Positions 10,863 through 63,760 of a stretch of 64,000 nt of DNA are shown piece after piece. Source of the DNA: Malacoraja senta (lineage: Eukaryota); the NCBI GenBank assembly GCA_038087875.1, contig CM075987.1, positions 21,638,001 to 21,702,000 on the forward strand, given 5' to 3'. The notes below the pieces were generated by a model, which had not been told where the DNA came from, ran no database searches, and saw only the letters and a list, made by a program, of their open reading frames with translations. Both the position numbers and the translations under genes were made by a program. How positions within the stretch are numbered: position 1 is the stretch's first letter; the number at the start of each line of letters is the position of its first letter.

Positions 10863-11305
10863 CTGAGGTTAGTGAGCTGCAGGAGGACCCAGATGTGCTC
10901 CTCAGAGAGGTCCATGTTGTACAGCACTAATGACCCAAGCCGCTTCTGCCACTGCAGCAAAAATTGGATGTCATTCAGCTGGATCCCAGAGAGGTCAAGT
11001 GAGGTCAGAGTGGTCAGTGGCCGCAGGAGTCGGTCCACGTTCACTCCATCAGTTATATGACCCAGATTGAGAAAGCACAGCCGGTGGAAGCCAGTGAAGG
11101 AGAAGTCCTTGACGAGAACCTGCCGTGAGGGGTTCACCATGCTGTTGTTGTCCCCTTCGCAGCCGCCAGGATTCTCCTCTTCGTAAAAAATGTTATTGCA
11201 CCCAAACAGGCTGAGTGAAACCAGCGTGCTGCGGAAGTTATTCAGAGTCTGTAGGCTTTTGGCAGAGAGTCTATCGCAGTTCACAAGGCGAAGCTCAACG
11301 AGATC
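10863..11305 (-). CDS. ZER1: ZER1 coding exon (DLVELRLVNCDRLSAKSLQTL...LTNLR, LRR region)
   Basis: 443 nt, AG/GT bounded, LRR motifs. Confidence 0.95.
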
Positions 11306-12816: not shown

Positions 12817-13892
12817 CTAGAGGAAGCATTGGGGACAGGATGAGCCTTTTTAAACCTACTCGAGTTCAGAACTGAAAAGAATGATTCAAATGAGGGGTCA
12901 GCAAAACATGGAAAATATTTTTTTCTTGGAACGTCACCATATTTGGTTACAAAATGCAAATTGCCATTATATATTGCTTCACTTCCAACCCATCAGTCTT
13001 TCAGCATCTCACTCAAGCCAGCCTTCAATCCTCTAAACTCAAATTTACGCAGCCCAACCTTATACTTTAGCTTTTCTAACATATTCTTATCTATTTTCCT
13101 GTTAAATCTACCTGTAATTTTTGCCTCAACTATTCCATCTAACGGTAAGATCCATAGTTTCATTATTTTCTTATTGATTGCGTTCTGCTAAGATTTCTGT
13201 TTAGATATACAGTATTAGTGACCTATGTCAGTTGGCAGCACAATACAGAAGCATCTTTGTAACATAGTTTTAAAAATCTGGAGCTCTCTGCATCTAAAAA
13301 CTCTACAAGTATCCGAGGTTAGATAAAGTACTTGAGGCCGAGACCAATAGAATTTGTGGGTAGATACATCAAGAAACCTGGAGCCAAGATGTGAAAATTG
13401 AGTTGAGATAAAGACCACACAAGGTAGATCAGGTTTGAAGGGCTGAATTGTCTCTTCTGCGTGCTAGATGGGCTGATTGGACCTTACTGCCCATAATTAC
13501 CTTGGTCACTCTTGATTACTTCCTGTTGAATCATTTCGTTTCTGAAACCACATAAACCTTGAGCCACTCAATCTTGTTCTGCCATCCAACCACGTCTTGG
13601 CCAATCTGCACCTTAACTTCATCCAACTTTCGTGGTTCCTTACCCATTTAATATCCTTGTCCAACAAGAATCAATTTCAGTTTTTGAAATTATCATCTCA
13701 CTGGCAGTCATAAAAACTTTTCAGGATGGTTAATAAAATTTTTTTTATAAAATGCCTTTTATGATCATGGGACATTACAAAATTCTTTATAGATAAATAA
13801 ACATTTTAAGTGTTATTGCTTTGTAATATAGGAAATTGGTAGACAATTTGGACAGAGCAAAGCAACAGCATTCCAGATCTTCTCTACCCTAA

Positions 13893-14427
13893 TGTGAAAG
13901 TTAGTTTCTTAAAAAAGCAGATAGCAACAACCGTTGAAGGTAGACCATGGCAATCTTTAATTAAATCGTCAGACGGAAGTGGCGAGATACAATGAGCACA
14001 AACGTTGCTCAGTGCTTCTCGGGCTCCCACTCACAGAACAAAGGCGAGTTAGCACAATTATACATTTTTCTTATCAGTAAAACACTCCTACCTAGTCTAA
14101 ATATGGCATGACTGAAAGATTCTGTAGCCTTTCACAATATAGGAAAGCTGGGTCCAAATCGAGCTCCTCCAATGACAAGTTATTACTTATCTCTGGAGCG
14201 TCAGCTATTTTTTAAATCTTGGCTTCTTTATGGCCTTGAAGAAGAACATGTTATTACTGCAGGCTGCCATCTTAATGTCTTTATTGAAAAGACAATCTGT
14301 CCTCCATATTGTGTTCCATGTAATTTACAAAGTCATTCAGACTTGGCACCGAGCCATTCTTTGTTCTACTAGTCCATGCTTTTGTAGAAGAACGACTCCA
14401 TTTTAGATTTGACTATTAGCTCTTTCA
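13893..14427 (-). repeat. 3' LTR of the ERV-like element
   Basis: 535 bp, near-identical to 19581-20126; preceded on the minus strand by the polypurine tract AAAAAGGAGAGAA (14428-14440). Confidence 0.95.
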
Positions 14428-14632
14428 TTCTCTCCTTTTTATCAAACGTGATAACATTCACAGTCCTTGATAGGTACACACAAAGGTCGCAGGTATTAGA
14501 GCAATGATTAGCTGAATGATAGAGCCATAATGTATCACAGTACCCCAAAGTCCACCAAACCAAAGGTATGGCTACCAGTTCAATAGTACCCCAAAGTCCA
14601 TCAAACCAATTGTATGGCAACCAGTTCTCACT

Positions 14633-15354
14633 CTCTTCATTGACAACCATCCTGATGAAGCTTGTTTAGGGTCGATGGATCAGGTGCCACCTGTAGGCGG
14701 TGTAATCCTTTCAGCCGATATTGGGGTTGTGCCATAAAGTTCGCACCTGTCTGAGGGTGTTGTCAGTCTCTTCGTAGATTGTTGCACAGGTGAGGTGCTC
14801 CCCCCCTCTCGTCCTGTGGTGGGGTTCATCACCTTGTAGTATCCTAGCGTATCCGTGGGTTTGGGCAACTTCTCCTAGTAGATTTGGGTGGACTGCTTCC
14901 ACATCACCACGTAGAAGCCAAAGACAAAGCTAGCGTAGATTGCAGTCTGTGTTGATGTAGAAGGTGCCATTGAAATTGATGTCGTTGAACTCAAATCCGA
15001 CAGTAAGGCCAGGCTCAGAGTTGGCGGTCTGCAGTAACTCCCTGCCCTTGTTGTGCACTACCCAGTTAGTATTGATCTGCATCGTCCCCTTTGGAACTTC
15101 CTCAGGTCCGTCTCACTGATGGCGCTGTTCTCAGGGCACATGTCATAGATATCTGGGATGCTGTTGTCAAAGTCCTTGCAGGTGTCTCCTCTGCTGTCAC
15201 CATCGGCATCGATCTGGTTAGGGTTGGGAACAAAACAGCAATTGTCCTTCTCATCAGAAACGCCATCATTGCCATCCACATCAATGTCCTGATTGTCTTC
15301 ACACTGATTAACCACCAGGTCTGAGTCATTGTCTTCCTGGATAGGGTTATAGAG
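14633..15354 (-). pseudogene. Intronless, degenerate thrombospondin (THBS2-like) fragment: type-3 Ca-binding repeats plus C-terminal L-lectin domain, inside the ERV
   Basis: Translates (with frameshifts) [114 protein letters not shown]. Collinear with THBS1/2 across several exons with no introns. Confidence 0.92.
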
Positions 15355-15359
15355 GTCCG

Positions 15360-15510
15360 TCTTTTTCAAAATGTTCAGCTTCTCTCTCTCTAGGCCCTTG
15401 GTCATACGATAGAGCTCAAAATGCTTCAAGATTGTTGATCAAATGTGGTTGTCTTTCCGAAGTTGTGACCAAAGGCTTTGCACTTCCTCCTGATCTGTAA
15501 AGATGTTCTT
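15360..15510 (-). pseudogene. Short degenerate fragment resembling the CRACR2A/CRACR2B/RAB44 coiled-coil region, inside the ERV
   Basis: [31 protein letters not shown]...[10 protein letters not shown] compared with recalled CRACR2A [22 protein letters not shown]...EKNELECALKRK. Confidence 0.55.
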
Positions 15511-15512
15511 TC

Positions 15513-16465
15513 TTCTGCATGGATCAGCTGTACATGGCACTGCTGGTAGCGATCAATCAGAAACACCTCGTTACCTCCTGGGTGGGGGCAAGGTCTTTCA
15601 CGCACCTGTTCAAGCTGCTCTTTTATGTGTTTCTTAAGTCCGTCAACTCCCCTGTAACAGCACAGTAACCCTTATACTGACATCGATACACGGTGGGGAA
15701 ATTTTCCCTTTCCAAGTTTGACTTTGGTTTCCGGCCACGTTTTTGTCCAGATTGTTTCTTCACATCCTTAATATTGCACTTCTTAACTGGTAACTTACTC
15801 TTCTTCTTCCAAATGGTTGAAAAGACTCATCTGAAGAACCATTCTTAACTTTTATTTCTCTGTCATCTTCACTTGATAAATACCTTTCAGAAAGATCACT
15901 GGACTCCAATCCATCCATAACATAATTTCTTATAGAACAAGTTGCTTCATTGCAGTTAACTGTTTTTTTAATGGTTGAGTTGCATCTTGTACCTGAACCT
16001 TTTCCCAAGAGCACTCTGTATATTCAGGATATGAGCGCAAGAACATATCCTTCTTCAATGGGGATTCCGAGTTGTCCACACACACCGACCGTAAAGTGGT
16101 TCCACTGTATGTACAAGGCTGAAAGTCTGTTAACACTGGGACAGGTTGATGCTTCGCAACATTATCACCCTCACCATTTTCAGTCACTGTTCTATTCCAA
16201 GGTGAAAAGGTTATTGAACCATCCAGAACTTCCTCCACCGAGTCCTTATTTCTACTGTATGGGCACTGTCAGCCATGATCATATTGGAATGGCGGATGAT
16301 ATTGGATCATATTGGATGATCAGCCATGATCATATTGAATGGCGGTGCAGGCTTGAAGGGCCGAATGGCCTACTCCTGCACCTATTTTCTATGTTTCTAT
16401 GTCCCTCATTCAAAACAACGCTGCGACTTGAATGCATGTCCAGGATGTAACTGTGGCCCTCTGTT
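15513..16465 (-). pseudogene. Intronless degenerate ZNF276 mid-region fragment (acidic region plus first C2H2 fingers), inside the ERV
   Basis: SSDLSERYLSSEDD...SSDESFQPF, ERENFPTVYRCQYKG, YRGVDGLKKHIKEQLEQVRERPCPHPGGNEVFLIDRYQQCHVQLIH match recalled ZNF276 (ELPTIYKCPYQGCTAVYRGADGMKKHIKEHHEEVRERPCPHPGCNKVFMIDRYLQRHVKLIH). Interrupted by a CR1 3' tail at ~16247-16402. Confidence 0.9.
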
Positions 16466-16825
16466 ATCAGAGTTCTGAACAGTGCTTCCAATTGCTAGTA
16501 TTCTGCCTGATGCACCTCTACCCCATTGCATACATTGGACTTTGTCTCTGGAACTGGTGTGCTATAATGCTCAGAACTATATTCTCCACACTAACCTTTA
16601 TCTGAAGAAGGGTTTCGGCCCGAAACGTTGCCTATTTCCATCGCTCCATAGATGCTGCTGCACCCGCTGAGTTTCTCCAGCATTCTTGTCTACCTTTCCT
16701 TTGCTCTACCTTTTTTAGGTGAGCCTGAATTGATTACAATTAATCATGTTAATCCTTTGTGTCTTGCTGACATTGAAAAAGGGTGCAAGATTCTTTAGAC
16801 TCATCATTTAGCTGTTGAATAACTA

Positions 16826-17023
16826 TTAACTGGGTTCCTGCTTAATTAATGTTTCCAAACTTAGCTCACTTGATTCAATTTCAATACGTTTGTTTTTATC
16901 TGTATTCTGGGTCAAGGGATGAACCATGGACATATGAACATTCAAATTGTGAGCCTTCTCGAACCGCTTCTCACATTGGTCACAAGCAAATCCAAGTTTA
17001 GCTTCCGTCTTGTGCTTGGTCAG
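16826..17023 (-). pseudogene. ZNF276 C-terminal fragment (last zinc finger to stop codon), inside the ERV
   Basis: Open 66 codons: LTKHKTEAKLGFACDQCEKRFEKAHNLNVHMSMVHPLTQ...IKQEPS*, versus recalled ZNF276 MTKHKAETELDFACDQCGRRFEKAHNLNVHMSMVHPLTQ...VKPEPT. Confidence 0.92.
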
Positions 17024-17066
17024 TGTTATAAATGTAAGGACAGTTGTCAGCCTTATTCAGGGCGTC
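17016..17066 (-). pseudogene. 5' piece of the thrombospondin fragment (DALNKADNCPYIYNTDQ)
   Basis: TSP type-3 repeat matching recalled THBS2 DVFNERDNCPYVYNTDQ, which lies just upstream of where the main fragment resumes. Confidence 0.8.
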
Positions 17067-17189
17067 TTGGTGCAGCGGGTGTTTCCCCAAGTCCAGCTCA
17101 TCTGGGCCAACCTCAGGATAAAAAGTAGGGCCAATAGCCCCATTGTCCTTTCTTGGTTCTCCTCCATTTATAGTCAATCGTATCAGATG

Positions 17190-17492
17190 TCTTCAATGGG
17201 AGTAATCTTCAATCTTCACGGCAATTGGTGTCGTAGTAACACCTGGTACAGTCCCCTCCAACATGGTCCCGATTTTGTCCGATCCCAGTAGTATGGACTG
17301 TATCTGTATTCAACTGGCAGTGGCGTCTGCGTTTTCAACCTCTGTGAATACAAGACTGACAAGGTTGTGCTTAATTGCTGTGCGTATGCAATTAATTCAT
17401 TGCTGTGGGCCTGTAGGTCAAAACTAACTTCCACACTCTCTAGTGTCCTAGTCATTCCCTCCACTAATCCAGAATTCTACGGGTAGTGGGGG
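17190..17492 (-). pseudogene. Retroviral integrase C-terminal remnant
   Basis: PHYP*NSGLVEGMTRTL (cf. YHPQSSGxVERMNRTL) and PCWRGLYQVLL...AVKIE (GPY/F module), internally deleted. Confidence 0.8.
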
Positions 17493-18599
17493 ATGAGAGA
17501 TCACTCTTTAACTACCTATAAGGCTGACCCTTTAAAAATAGATCATTATATTAAAAAAAAACAATTTAAAAAATATTCCCAATTGTTCCAATCTATCTCC
17601 CCAAATTTACAATTTCAAATTAACAGATTTTGTTCTGAGATAAAGGCATCTCCAATCTCCTCTAACACATCTACCTGAATGTCACGTGGCCATTGTGGAA
17701 TTCAGGTCTCTGTTTGAACTCAATTCAAAAGGTAAGAAATAAGGAAAAGAAAAAAATAATAAACCTAAAGTTAAGAGAAAACAAAGAATCAACAATTAAT
17801 TTCCATAGATTACAAGCTCATTCAATGACTTCCTATTTCATCTGACATGGAGCATTTCATCAAAAGGGGTATATATATAAATATAGCCTGTAACTTTATG
17901 TCAACTATCCCGATAGGCTTTGGGAGAAATAAAAAAAAACATAGCTAAATTCTAAACACAGTAAAATTAAGCTGCCAGTATCCTGTTATCATAGCCTTGA
18001 AAAGAATACTGAGCTTCTGTAGTCAGATAAGAGACAGAACTTGGATGAGTGACAACTCAAAAGAACACGGAGAACTATAAGAGCCAGAACTTCCTTGAAT
18101 ACTTTTGAAAGCTTTTCGGTTTTAACAAATACTAATCTTCGAACATTAAAATAAAACGAATACAAATAAAAACCAGGCAAAATATACATCAATTAAACAA
18201 ATTTAATCCGAGCGGAGTTAGCAAAAGTGGAGTAGCCCCCTCGTTTCCAAAAACCATGCAAAGCATTAGAGACGTCTCTCACTATATTAATTTTTTTTTT
18301 CCTCCCTTATCTGACAAAAGCCGTTCTGTTTAAAAGGGAATTGTTTCTATGGGAACCAATTTGCAGAATTGATGCAGAATTAGCAAGCTAGGAAATTCCC
18401 CAGGCAGATTTTGTGAACTCGGACTGGGAGGTTTGCAAAAGTTGTCTTCTTGGTTGGAGTGAGAATTTAAAATGAACAAAGGGAGTAGTTCAATGTAATG
18501 GTGGGCGTGCTAATGTTCAAAACGGGAGTGGTCTGAGCTGTGATTGGACAGTGATCCAGATTGTGTTTGGCCACCTCCCCCTTCTTCTATAGACAGAGT

Positions 18600-18966
18600 C
18601 GCCATTGCCAGACATAGGGTCTCGAGAGGTTCGAGAGGACCTAGAGAAGACGTACCGGTACCGGCTTATCAGCGGGCTCCGAACTCTTATCAGCGATTTC
18701 TTTCTCTGCCTTAGCCCTTATCTCCTATTCCTCTGCCCACTGAAATTCCATCTGAAGTACTTTCCATTCTTTTAATAGTTCTGTCTTTGTACACAATTCA
18801 ATTCCTCTTTTACAAGCATAATTCATCCAACCACCATCTCGTGTCTCCACCATATGCCTCCTACTGGTCAAGACACATTACTCAAACGTTTGGTCAATTT
18901 ATAATTCAATATAACACATGTGTTGTACAGCTGTCTTTTCATCACATTTATCCAAATTATTTCCAT
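18600..18966 (-). pseudogene. Possible gag matrix remnant
   Basis: With a frameshift reads M(G)NNLDKCDEKTAVQHMC...LTKRLSNVS*PVGGIW...ELLKEWK; position after the leader fits gag. Confidence 0.45.
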
Positions 18967-19558
18967 GTTTATCCAATCACCAAATCACATCTTAGTACAC
19001 AACTTAGTATACAAATTGTAACTAAACTTTTTTTCAGCCTGCTAAGCCCAATCCTTTATTTGTAACAAACCTTTGCAGTCTGTAAAGTCCAATCCTGCCT
19101 ACTCTCTCTGGTAGCAAATTCACAAGTCTTTTCAAAACACTGTCTCTTCAAGACACATTAACTTCTTAATACACATCATTTCAAGACACCCAGTCTTTTC
19201 AATACACAATTAGTGACAAAAACGTTGTAGTCCGTCGTGTCCAGTCCTTTAATTGTGACAAAACCTCTATGGTCTGCCGTGCCCAATCCTTTACTCATTT
19301 CCAATACACAAGCCAATCATTTACTAATTTCCAATACACAAGCCAATCCTTTACACAAGTGGTCTTACCTTCGCTCTCTGCTTCAAAGGATCTTGTCTGG
19401 AACCAGGCCAACCTCAGACTGAAGGACCTTAGTTTTTCACCGAGAGCTTCTTCGGGAGGCCAGACTGCAAAGGGTCCGACTAGAGGTCAATTTTCTCCCC
19501 TTCAGATCCCGGTCAACTGCACCCTCTTACTCAGTCATCTGTTGCTGGTTCCAGCTAC

Positions 19559-19578
19559 ATCCCTGCCGACTACAGCCA
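19559..19578 (-). promoter_or_regulatory. Primer binding site, tRNA-Ser-like
   Basis: TGGCTGTAGTCGGCAGGGAT begins 2 nt after the 5' LTR; near-complement of the vertebrate tRNA-Ser 3' end (ATCCTGCCGACTACGCCA) with small insertions. Confidence 0.8.
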
Positions 19579-19580
19579 AA

Positions 19581-20126
19581 TGTGAAAGTTTGTTTCTTAA
19601 AAAGCAGATAGCAACAACCGTTGAAGGTAGACCTGGCAATCTTTAATTAAATCGTCAGACGTAAGTGGCGAGATACAATGAGCGCAAACGTTGCTCAGTG
19701 CTTCTCGGGCTCCCACTCACAGAACAAAGGCGAGTTAGCACAATTATATATTTTTCTTATCAGTAAAACACTCCTACCAAGTCTAAATATGGCATGACTG
19801 AAAGATTCTGTAGCCTTTCACAATATAGGAAAGCTGGGTCCAAATCGAGCTCCTCCAATGACAAGTTATTACTTATCTCTGGAGCGTCAGCTATTTTTTA
19901 AATCTTGGCTTCTTTATGGCCTTGAAGAAGAACATGTTATTACTGCAGGCTGCCATCTTAATGTCTTTATTGAAAAGACAATCTGTACTCCATATTGTGT
20001 TCCATATAATTTACAAAGTCATTCAGACTTGGCACCGAGCCATTCTTTGTTCTACTAGTCCATGCTTTTGTCGAAGAACGACTCCATTTTAGATTTGACT
20101 ATTAGATTTGACTATTAGCTCTTTCA
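19581..20126 (-). repeat. 5' LTR of the ERV-like element
   Basis: By eye differs from the 3' LTR by about 8 substitutions, two 1-nt indels and a 13-bp duplication. Confidence 0.95.
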
Positions 20127-20213
20127 CTAAGACATTGCCATCCTGACATCGCCATCCTGAATCATCGCTCTGCCTTCCTTCCCCTCCTTTCCAATTTCGT
20201 ACACAAAACTCAC

Positions 20214-59800: not shown

Positions 59801-62336
59801 CAAAACGATGTGCACTTGTATTTAAAAAAATAAATTTTTACAAATTGCGCTTAATGTCTGTCTGAATTTTAGAATTGAAATAAAATTATTAGCATATTTT
59901 GTTCAAAATGCACAATGTATATTGTTGTTTTGAAACAATAATTAAAAAATATATCCATATTATTTTGGTTGTTTGATGTAATCTATGTGCATCATTAGTT
60001 CCAGGTATTTGTCCATCTTCAATTTTCTGCCATTTTTTGGCCAAGCTTTATCTTTCTAGGCATCAAGCTGTTTAATTCTATTCATAAACTTACTGCCCTT
60101 TCCATGTCTGAAGATGCTCCATGAAACCTACGTCATTGCTTCCTTCCATCTTCATGGTGCATTGCATCAGGAAGGCTGGAAGTACTGTCAAGTATACCTA
60201 TCATCCTGGCCATTCCTTTTTTCTCTGTACTTTCTGGAGAAGGTACAGGAACTTGAAAATTTAGATATCCAGACTTAAAGTTTAAGTCACCTGCCCTAAA
60301 GGTTTCCTTCTGCGGCTGTGTCAAATTTAGTTGGCTGATGCCTGGCACCTTAGGGCATTTAACTATATTACGGATGCTGTATAAATATAGATTTATATGC
60401 ACGCCCTAATGGAAATGCAGCCTGACCAGGCAGTATCACCGTATTGCTTGTTTTTGTTTAAGAACAACAGAAACAGTTGAACATGAACACTTCCTTCTAT
60501 TCAGTCCATTTATAAACTCATCTAATCAAACTGATATATTTGTGCTCCAAGTATTGTTCCCCAATTTTCCTACCAAAGTGCCCTACATCACATTTACACA
60601 GTTTATATAGCAACTGTCACCACCTTGCTCAATTGCTTAATCTGTGTCTATATCCTGATGGTTCACTTTCTAACCATAGTCTGCATCAAAGCCAAGTTGG
60701 ATAAACTGCTGACGGCCAAGAACTGGTCCCTCTAAAAATATTTTGAAAGGAACTTGATTCTGATTCCCACATTCTCGTGAAACTTAGAGGGGGCCTTCTT
60801 TCCCGCGCTCCTTTTAAATTGACCAGTTCCACTGTCACATCTAAAACAAAATTAAGTGTGTAAATTAATAATTGAAAGTCGTCTGGCCTAGCGTCACCGA
60901 AATGCCGGATTTCGGATTAACTGAGTTTAATGTGATGTTTAAAACATTAGCAATTTTACATTCTCTACAAAAAAAAACCGAGGTGTTGTTTCTATGGACG
61001 CGCGTTTGACGCTGCTTTGCCGTCGTTTCATCAGCGGAGAATTTAAGTCGTCACGATCAAGGCAACTGAGTAAACCAGCCAGACAGTTTTGATTGTTAAT
61101 ACTGGAGAATCAAAATTCTAACATATTACCAGACAGTTGTTGCAGAGCCCGCTGATCCTTTAACGTCAGGTAACCGTATTAACAAAAGTCGCGCAATCGA
61201 TTTCACGTAAGAAGACTGGTGTTTATCCAGGTGTAGGAGCGGATCCTCGGGTCATCCCATTCCCCATCACCGGCAACCACGAGTTAAGAGCGTAACCCAA
61301 ATGTTTCATTGGCAAGACCAGGGTGATGAAAATGTGCAGCATTTTCCCCTCAAAGTGGTTCACAAGAATAATTGATGTTTAAGAAGGAACTGCAGATGCT
61401 GGAAAATTTTGTCTACAAGAATAATTGATGTGGTTTTCTGATGCAGATTTTCGATTCGAAATGTCGATAATTCGTTCCAACGCTGATGATGCCCAACCTG
61501 CAGAGTGCCTCCAGTAGTAAAATGGTCGGAGAGAGAACTTCTTCAGAGAATGCTTCTAGTGGATGCTTGAAGAAGGGTCCCGACTCGAAACGTCACATAT
61601 CCACGTTCTCCAGAGATGCTGCCTGACAGCTGTTACTCCAACACATGGCGTCCTTTAATGTAAACCAACATCTGCAGTTCCTTGTTTCTACTTTTCGTAG
61701 ATCGTTGCGCAAGAATAATTGTTGACATTACCATCAATGCCCAGAAACCGAAAAATAAATAAATATCAACGTCATTTAAGTTGTAATTAATGATTTAATT
61801 TATGATCAAAAAACAGCACTGACAAGTCATCTTCATAAAGATAGACACAAAAAGCTGGAGTAACTCAGCGGGTAGGCAGCATCTCTGGAGAGAAGGAATG
61901 GGTGACGTTTCGGATCGAGACCCTTCTTCAAGCGTCCTGGAAGCAGACACAAAATGCTGGAGTAACTCAGCGGATCAGGCAACATCTCTGGAGGGAAGGA
62001 AAAGGGTGACGTTTCGGGTCGATTCCTTCTCTCCAGAGATGGTGCCTGACCCGCTGAGTTGCTCCAGCATTTTGTGTCTACCTTCGATTTAAACCAGCAT
62101 CTGCAGTTCTTTCCTACACATCCACTGGAAGCATTATCTTTGAATAAGTTCTCTCTCCGACTATTTTACTACTGGAGGCACTCAGCGGGAAAACGTCGTC
62201 CATTCCTTCTCTCCAGAGATACTGCCTGCCCCGCTGAGTTACTCCAGCTTTTTGTGACTATCTTCCTTGCTTTGATATGGGTTTGATTTGGACACATTGG
62301 GGCGTCACTTGCGTCGGTTACACTTGTATCGGGCGG

Positions 62337-62348
62337 CGCGCATGCGCC
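62337..62348. promoter_or_regulatory. NRF1-type palindrome in the ENDOG promoter
   Basis: GCGCATGCGC (62338-62347) about 55 nt upstream of the ENDOG ATG, next to a GGGCGG box. Confidence 0.65.
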
Positions 62349-62402
62349 AGGCGTGTGACATTGACACAGTCCCATTCACAGAAAAAGTTGCAAGGTTCTA
62401 GA

Positions 62403-62939
62403 ATGCGCCGCGCACTGAGCTCACGGTGGCTGTTGGCGGGAGTCTCCTTGGCTGCAGGGGCCGGTTTGGGGGTGGGATACGGAGCCCACCGGCACCAAGA
62501 TGCTTCCGACTCCTTCCTTCATTGCCCCGTGATCCCTATCCAGTCTGTAACCGCGGATGCCGTTGCCAACGAGTCCTTGGTGCCGGTCAGTCCGGCACAG
62601 CTGACCCTCGGCAAGACGACCGAAATCATGAAATTCGGTTTCCCTTCTCTGTCCCATATCAAGACCCGCGAATCATACGTGTTGGCGTATGACCCACGCA
62701 CCAGGAACGCCCTGTGGGTGCTGGAGCGATTGGACGCGGGCAGACTGGGCCTGACTGGCTCCGACCGCAATCGTTGTGTATTTAGGGAGGATGAGTCTGT
62801 GCATGAATACCACCGAGCACAGAACAGCGACTTCAAAGGTAGCGGTTTCGACCGGGGTCACTTGGCAGCAGCCGCTAATCATAAGCACAGCCAGAAATGC
62901 ATGGATGATACCTTCTACCTCAGCAACATGGTGCCTCAG
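62403..62939 (+). CDS. ENDOG: Endonuclease G, mitochondrial, exon 1
   Basis: Arg/Leu/Ala-rich presequence MRRALSSRWLLAG..., KFGFP, RESYVLAYDPRTRNALWVLE, catalytic FDRGHLAAAANH, DDTFYLSNMVPQ then gtaacc donor. Confidence 0.96.
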
Positions 62940-63760
62940 GTAACCAGTAGGGAAGCATAAAATTCCAGATCCTATAAATTCGAAACACAGACAGAAAGCT
63001 GGAAATGCTTAGCAGGTCGAGAGATATCAATGGGGTAAGGACACACAGGGAAGGTTTGGAGATTTAGAACTTCATCAGAACCGGAATGCTGAGAAGGCGA
63101 AGTTGCAAAAACAGGAAGTGGAGAGAGAATCGTGGGAATGTTTGTGATAGGGTGCAGATCCAAGTTGCCAATTATTTAAAAAACAATATGTTTAAGAGAT
63201 AATTGAAACAAATGTACTGCTGCATTTCGAGCGGAACAGTATATGATAGGAGCATCCCACAATGTCTGTGCCAAACATGATGCCAAGTTAAACAAATCTC
63301 CTCTCCCTTCATTCCCTGCATTTCCGCGTACATATCTAAAAGCCTAAAAAATGCCACTATCACATCTGCCTCAAACACCATACCTGACACTGTGTTCTAG
63401 GCACCCACCACACTCTTGAGTTTAAAATAACTTGCCCTGTACCAAAGGACCCCTTTCCATGATTTATTGTTGATTATTTTTTTCATTCTGAAATAAGGTA
63501 AATTTATGATAAAATCATAGCTTTTTATGGTTGAAAACCAAGCTGCTTTGAGAAGGACATACATACAGTCTGAAGCATAACATTCCTTCAGTTTTGAGGG
63601 GAAGAAGTGAAACATAGTTAGATTCAGTTGGGATATGTTTATAGAACATGCAGTCTGGACCAACAATTGAATTTATTTTCATTTTGGTAACTTAAACACA
63701 TTTTACTATCTATATACTGTCCTTTTCTGTGCTAGTCTTAGATTTACTTCTTCCCTTTAG

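Follow-up and report, generated by a model that had tools for sequence, protein, structure and literature searches.

A circularly permuted, intronless ZNF276 copy inserted into captured cDNA of a skate LTR element

Non-colinear retrocopies are usually taken as traces of back-spliced circular RNA. Defective transducing retroviruses carry host cDNA and spread in a helper-dependent manner. LTR-mediated retrocopies, in the accessible part of Tan et al. 2016 (PMC5131818), arise by microsimilarity switching onto co-packaged mRNA, with about 6 bases of microsimilarity at the fusion points; maize Bs1, HERV-K/FAM8A1 and the mouse four-gene 'Super' retrocopy are cited there. As far as that part of the text goes, the Drosophila retrocopies in every case took the place of some element sequence, and a continuous element was never interrupted. 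For circRNA-derived pseudogenes, such as that of mouse circRFWD2, the available portion of Dong et al. 2016 (PMC4897178) describes exon-to-exon back-splice junctions. The open-access literature searched gave neither a unit-length permuted LTR capture nor a description of the element family reported here; supplements and subscription papers may differ.

We analysed a stretch of 64,000 nucleotides of Malacoraja senta DNA (contig CM075987.1), referred to below as the window. It contains a non-autonomous LTR element that works like the LTR-mediated retrocopies, differing by a clean permuted insertion of ZNF276 mRNA; it is a variant, not a typical member. The decayed, non-coding element lies within a ZER1-like gene, in an intron and on the same strand as that gene. 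Its frame and its cargo other than ZNF276 are as follows.

10865 to 11305: ZER1-like exon (LRR_Zer-1, E 3.4e-8)
13893 to 20126, minus strand: non-autonomous LTR element, 6.2 kb, with a 4-bp target duplication TTAG at 20127-20130 and 13889-13892
19581 to 20126, minus strand: 5' LTR (TG...CA), 8 mismatches in 533 bases aligned with the 3' LTR
19559 to 19578, minus strand: primer-binding-site-like sequence directly after the 5' LTR, recognised from its sequence
17170 to 17700 (approximate), minus strand: putative broken retroviral-integrase-like remnant
17015 to 17066, minus strand: THBS2-like cDNA, 5' piece, joined through the word TGACCAAG to ZNF276 mRNA 1706
15351 to 15511, minus strand: RASEF-like cDNA, 3' half (model bases 450-543 and 990-1056), overlapping ZNF276 at AAAGAA
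14620 to 15350 (approximate), minus strand: THBS2-like cDNA, 3' piece, type 3 repeats and C-terminal domain, with deletions (TSP_3, E 1.5e-9)
13893 to 14427, minus strand: 3' LTR, preceded by a polypurine run at 14440-14428

The hallmarks of an endogenous retrovirus, i.e. TG...CA LTRs, a short target duplication and a polypurine tract, are present. The primer-binding-site-like sequence is one that we take to be for tRNA-Ser. When a family copy of the integrase-like remnant, with X at the stops, was compared with PDB, the top matches were mainly retroviral integrases, weak in score (E 0.4-1.3), and the broken remnant gave no match to the integrase family in Pfam. The long frames with an ATG start in the element consist of a broken piece of thrombospondin and an antisense overlap. 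Among 13 LTR pairs measured, that of the window was the most alike (1.5% vs 3.5-7.6%). This copy, with similar LTRs yet two repeats not seen in other copies, is either a recent insertion or a case of LTR conversion. A tandem duplication of 43-46 bases lies just before the polypurine run (window 14539-14627). Elsewhere in the window, long inverted repeats with a transposase-like frame (1486-1950) mark 1257-2841, presumably a Tc1/mariner-like element, and a frame at 62277-62960 (plus strand) resembles, on our assumption, the first exon of endonuclease G.

The host ZNF276 gene was found via its zf-AD domain. It has 11 exons and a 633-aa frame (G000:C2:152.63-152.67 Mb). In an independent public run, one contig has the two ZNF276 coding ends joined in host order, which supports the spliced ZNF276 model. 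The 3'UTR region of the host gene is a repeat, and its mRNA 2128-2306 stretch is itself an old-repeat derivative. Two further zf-AD matches, L025 (G000:C2457:191730) and L026 (G000:C2682:247783), had open frames of 179 and 416 aa without a ZNF276 match. To our knowledge, zf-AD proteins besides ZNF276 are uncommon among vertebrates. On the spliced model, the window copy consists of the following parts.

16732 to 17022, minus strand: ZNF276 mRNA 1706-1996, with the end of finger 4, finger 5, the stop (16828-16826) and the start of the 3'UTR; 94.5% to the last host exon
16457 to 16738, minus strand: ZNF276 3'UTR, mRNA 2128-2306, after a deletion at an 8-base word; cut by a short repeat at 16697-16600
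16457 to 16463, minus strand: permutation junction of the window copy, the 7 bases CAGAGGG, mRNA 2300-2306 = 728-734
15506 to 16463, minus strand: ZNF276 mRNA 728-1561, from mid exon 4 through exons 5-9 into exon 10, intronless

By tblastn with the skate ZNF276 protein P0002 and by blastn, residues 568-631 and the stop fell at 17022-16826, with the 3'UTR continuing to 16457, and residues 242 to about 518 (acidic region and fingers 1-2) at 16463-15506, both on the minus strand. The order by blastn is thus 1706-1996, 2128-2306 (3'UTR) and then 728-1561, with no introns; relative to the parent, exons 4-10 are fused. The pieces matched the host exons at 91-100% (E 1e-27 to 1e-130), and the last UTR piece matched the host gene at 87%, a figure lowered by gaps. 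The nearest named proteins are the ZNF276 of Leucoraja and Amblyraja (91%). A sequence-only reading of the window had ended the mid piece at 15513 and the probable 3'UTR at about 16740; the ends are now placed at 15506 and 16457, the UTR being interrupted by the 98-bp repeat at 16697-16600. The mid piece has three frameshifting indels and a second inserted repeat at 16399-16271. Neither repeat was seen at the same place in other aligned copies. Fingers 3-4 (mRNA 1562-1705) are missing from the window copy.

The element belongs to a multi-copy family: a first look gave 163 candidates for one ZNF276 piece and 127 for the other, of which the best 40 were scored for each. A total of 79 loci, including the window and five near-duplicate pairs, were examined; as they come from the best-40 lists, class proportions among them are not family frequencies. 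All 51 copies that hold both ZNF276 pieces show the permuted order, and none of these 51 has ZNF276 in host order or in tandem; likewise, no host-order crossing of mRNA 1540-1580 occurred among the 79 loci. Hence, the order claimed from the window alone was borne out, and so was its reading as a retro-copied ZNF276 mRNA reshuffled by template jumps; there is one intron-bearing parent and no assembly error.

The insert starts at about mRNA 1556 in 45 of the 79 loci and ends at about 1561 in 52, with both ends seen in 34. The longest copies (L067, L081 and L092) run from 1556 to 2315, with a UTR deletion, and then from 320 to 1561. By these starts and ends, the original insert was a single full turn of ZNF276 mRNA 320-2315, circularly permuted (1556/1562-2315, then 320-1561). 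A start at about 1706 was found at only 6 loci, the window included, at the 8-base word shared with the upstream THBS2-like piece; here, a deletion in the window subfamily removed fingers 3-4, the BICD piece (described below) and the 5' RASEF-like half. The absence of fingers 3-4 is therefore real for the window copy but not original: it is a secondary deletion confined to the 6 copies. The gapped two-piece insert, which had been the premise of the sequence-only reading, does not hold at the family level, where the gap is a later deletion.

The original closure is the 7-base word AGAAGCT, at which mRNA 2309-2315 equals 320-326, joining the middle of the 3'UTR to the middle of exon 2. In none of its 8 registers do a donor and an acceptor (GT/GC-AG) occur together. 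The comparison of breakpoints with splice sites and microhomologies that had been proposed thus gave short shared words and no splice register at the ZNF276 closure. The CAGAGGG junction of the window is a deletion product of the older AGAAGCT closure. The exit word, AAAGAA (6 bases, mRNA 1556-1561), is common to ZNF276 and the target. On the entry side, AAAGAA is repeated, together with two extra target bases and a templated ZNF276 stutter of 13-19 bases. Later losses comprise the window junction (a 7-base word), a deletion of 367-734 and the UTR deletion (8-base words each). At seven measured junctions the microsimilarity was 6-8 bases: 7 at the closure, 6 at the exit and 8, 8, 7 and 8 at later deletions. 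The chance that random position pairs share at least 6 bases is 0.0019, and at least 7 bases 0.00064. Such words at the closure, the exit and the later deletions argue for repeated microhomology jumps in the family. Judged by eye, the junction of BICD to RASEF-like sequence has about 4 bases and one RASEF-like deletion about 0-1.

The pooled divergence from the host was 4.05% and 4.57% for the two ZNF276 pieces (4.6% and 5.2% in the window copy), so both are about equally far from the parent, which fits a single event. The RASEF-like halves are at 7.9% and 9.7% from their host sequence; the lower divergence of ZNF276 is expected if it was one later capture. The C-terminal frame, described earlier as open and well preserved beside a frameshifted mid piece, owes this state to chance: 13 of 46 copies have neither a stop nor a frameshift in it, and the density of frameshifts is 4.98 per kb in the C-terminal piece compared with 3.32 in the mid piece.

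Both flanks of the insert are captured RASEF-like cDNA (P0128), whose parent is at G000:C3:72.2 Mb. At four loci that lack ZNF276, the RASEF-like target is contiguous as in the host, save for a one-base loss common to nearly all copies. At one flank site the host state was found in 4 of 4 empty copies and the derived state in 33 of 41 filled ones; at a site on the other side of the insert, the counts were 3 of 4 and 46 of 49. At 17 columns vs 2, the states of the empty copies are those of the most diverged subfamily, six of the 17 being one block. A tree rooted on that subfamily (54 rows, after exclusion of 20 loci with fewer than 1100 aligned bases and 5 near-duplicates) has the empty copies branching first, followed by the full-length ZNF276 copies; support for the sequence empty, full, deleted was 27-85 at the key nodes, with two diagnostic columns contrary and the rest blurred by recombination. 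Deletion classes are dispersed across the tree, and copies recombine and delete often. In the outgroup subfamily a LINE-like insert covers the target site and hides its own state there. Judging from these states, the four ZNF276-less copies are ancestral in form and not products of deletion. They make ZNF276 a clean insertion into a previously captured RASEF-like cDNA. It may be noted that a diverged subfamily (L094, L095, L106, L132 and L133, on contigs C385, C1195 and C3064) has two LINE-like inserts in the cargo zone.

The cargo of the empty copies reads, in order, THBS2-like, a bit resembling RASEF-like exon 11, BICD, RASEF-like 1386-1418, then 329-543, 990-1065 and THBS2-like. The short exon 11-resembling bit is about 82% alike by eye, and is uncertain. 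The back-jump within the RASEF-like cDNA, from 1386-1418 to 329-543 at an 8-base word, is out of order in 49 of 49 loci. One of its 9 registers has GT and AG (AG|GT), in mid-exon and with an acceptor lacking a pyrimidine tract, so that a cryptic back-splice is possible at this closure. The fourth fragment was identified as BICD from HMMER, cluster names and the host gene, while ESM Atlas gave only generic coiled-coil leads. The BICD piece, which has deletions, and the THBS2-like pieces are in host order.

A parent of the THBS2-like cargo was not found in a TSP_C scan (150 of 251 candidates scored) or by protein searches. The sole intact THBS gene retrieved is only 71-80% alike in DNA and was rejected, as was a second THBS-family locus, which is too distant. 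The missing THBS2 gene in G000 is likely to reflect an assembly gap or the limit of the search. Many THBS-domain matches lie on C385, C124 and C4083, suggesting local amplification. A Leucoraja erinacea entry of 223 aa named 'thrombospondin-2-like' (P0121) is 85% identical to the element cargo and has the same deletions. From this resemblance, other skates probably have the family too, with its copies mis-annotated as genes; in practical terms, such cargo copies get annotated as genes, P0121 being an example.

Fingers 3-5 had omega values of 0.86-1.26 and the mid piece values of 1.21-1.68 (assumed transition weight, no CpG correction, L081 excluded from the counts), and 7 of 40 copies were intact. 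With omega near 1 in both ZNF276 pieces, the insert is neutral cargo with no sign of function. In some copies (such as L039 and L041) the stutter keeps the RASEF-like frame continuous with ZNF276 fingers 3-5, which predicts a three-finger chimera (P0006). Selection on this chimeric frame was rejected by the omega near 1 and the 7 of 40 intact copies.

The structure, the junctions, the order of events and the neutrality are read directly from the copies, and they can be accounted for by a single pass of reverse transcription with three microhomology jumps on a linear ZNF276 mRNA. We put the probability of this reading at about 0.6; the agents (reverse transcriptase and RNase H), the linear template and a helper virus are inferred. 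Reverse transcriptase on the element RNA would leave the RASEF-like piece at AAAGAA and enter, at this word (1556-1561), a linear ZNF276 mRNA packaged alongside. It would copy to base 320 and then jump at AGAAGCT to base 2315, on the untouched 3' fragment of the same mRNA. Entry at 1561 would spare a 3' fragment beginning at the entry point, RNase H having first cut there. From the established behaviour of RNase H, the back-jump onto this fragment would force run-off at the entry point, and the enzyme would fall back, with a short stutter, onto the element RNA where it had departed. Later rounds would delete parts at 7-8-base words, one of these deletions taking fingers 3-4 in the window subfamily.

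Because the template would be destroyed behind the polymerase, exit equals entry in ZNF276 and the target is rejoined at the same place; independent captures or duplication and deletion predict neither. The linear route is favoured by the 7-8-base jumps common in the family and by the closure lacking a splice signal. Against it, the later deletions are forward jumps while the closure needs a backward one, the untidy 5' junction could also come from DNA end-joining, and a pre-formed circle yields an identical product. The route is further limited by the host order of BICD and THBS2-like sequence, and the reach of the host mRNA to base 2315 is predicted.

Such a circle would be a non-canonical circular RNA, spliced, spanning 320-2315 and closed at 7 bases, around which reverse transcriptase went once, with RNase H destroying the template behind it, before returning to the element. 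This would give the unit length and the same-site exit from only two jumps. 'Interior' circRNAs with junctions in short homologous sequences are reported in the accessible text of PMC8153647, and in what is available of that paper and of PMC7565381 the junction words match those found here. The element also has two out-of-order captures, with an AG|GT register at the RASEF-like closure, but the ZNF276 closure has no splice register, and words of the same length mark ordinary deletions in the family. We regard this circle as possible but rather unlikely. Of the earlier proposal that a circularised RNA was copied, the back-spliced form falls for want of a GT/GC-AG register at the closure and the non-canonical form survives to that extent. 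In its wider form, spliced germ-line mRNAs closed at short words would be copied whole by retroviral reverse transcriptase, ZNF276 and RASEF-like being two fossil captures; we hold this equally tentatively. If true, circle capture could be searched for in LTR elements generally by the mark 'one full turn, entry = exit'.

Polymerase-theta joining typically leaves templated repeats at its junctions. The repeats at the present junction resemble such joining and fit a circle of DNA, in which a ZNF276 cDNA circularised by microhomology would have joined the element by one crossover or by end-joining at AAAGAA; a single crossover predicts a duplication of the shared word and an intact target, both of which are observed. 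This route, however, needs a free cDNA, its circularisation and a target of about 300 bases in an element already holding three other spliced mRNAs there, and captures clustered in one zone are more simply explained by switching at the RNA level. We consider it improbable.

Frequent recombination and deletion, with deletion classes scattered on the tree, lend something to two separate captures, to sister-genome recombination or to deletions after a tandem duplication. Two of these, separate jumps and sister-genome recombination, had been put forward for the window. Breakpoints of independent origin would then have to fall within 6 bases of one another, in ZNF276 as well as in the target, which these events would not give. 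None of the 51 copies is in host order or tandem, the pieces are equally diverged and empty ancestors exist, so that such origins are very improbable. Finally, a canonical back-spliced circRNA (to which the non-colinear order and LTR flanks have a likeness, going by the accessible part of PMC4897178), different paralogues and a local assembly error merit hardly any credence, as the closure, between mid-exon 2 and the mid-3'UTR, lacks a GT/GC-AG register, one host gene accounts for both pieces, and 51 of 51 loci, spread over many contigs, agree in the order.

The element can be set beside the known systems. Like the LTR-mediated retrocopies in the accessible text of PMC5131818, it has partial intronless mRNAs of several parents between LTRs and further non-autonomous cycles. 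Unlike the Drosophila set in that text, ZNF276 is a clean insertion that kept its target, as one permuted full turn, with surviving empty ancestors and deletion steps. It shares with circRNA-derived pseudogenes, as presented in the available portion of PMC4897178, the non-colinear order, multiple copies and LTR neighbourhood, with no poly(A) seen in the insert; it differs from them in a closure from mid-exon to mid-UTR at a 7-base word without splice register. With the interior circRNAs, in the part of PMC8153647 at hand, it has in common a junction in a short shared word and no splice signal; those are RNA-seq observations, whereas this is a fixed genomic copy across many spliced exons.

The host cDNA lying 3' of a pol-like remnant and a presumably helper-dependent spread would, by analogy, liken the element to defective transducing retroviruses, from which it differs in that its cargo is scrambled and neutral (omega near 1), with no selected product. 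What it offers is an exact one-turn permutation without splice signals, with the empty ancestor and the decay steps in one genome. Either reverse transcription can loop back during capture and permute a coding sequence in one step, or a non-canonical circle was captured, and both are testable. If linear looping is true, scrambled gene copies need not derive from back-spliced circular RNA.
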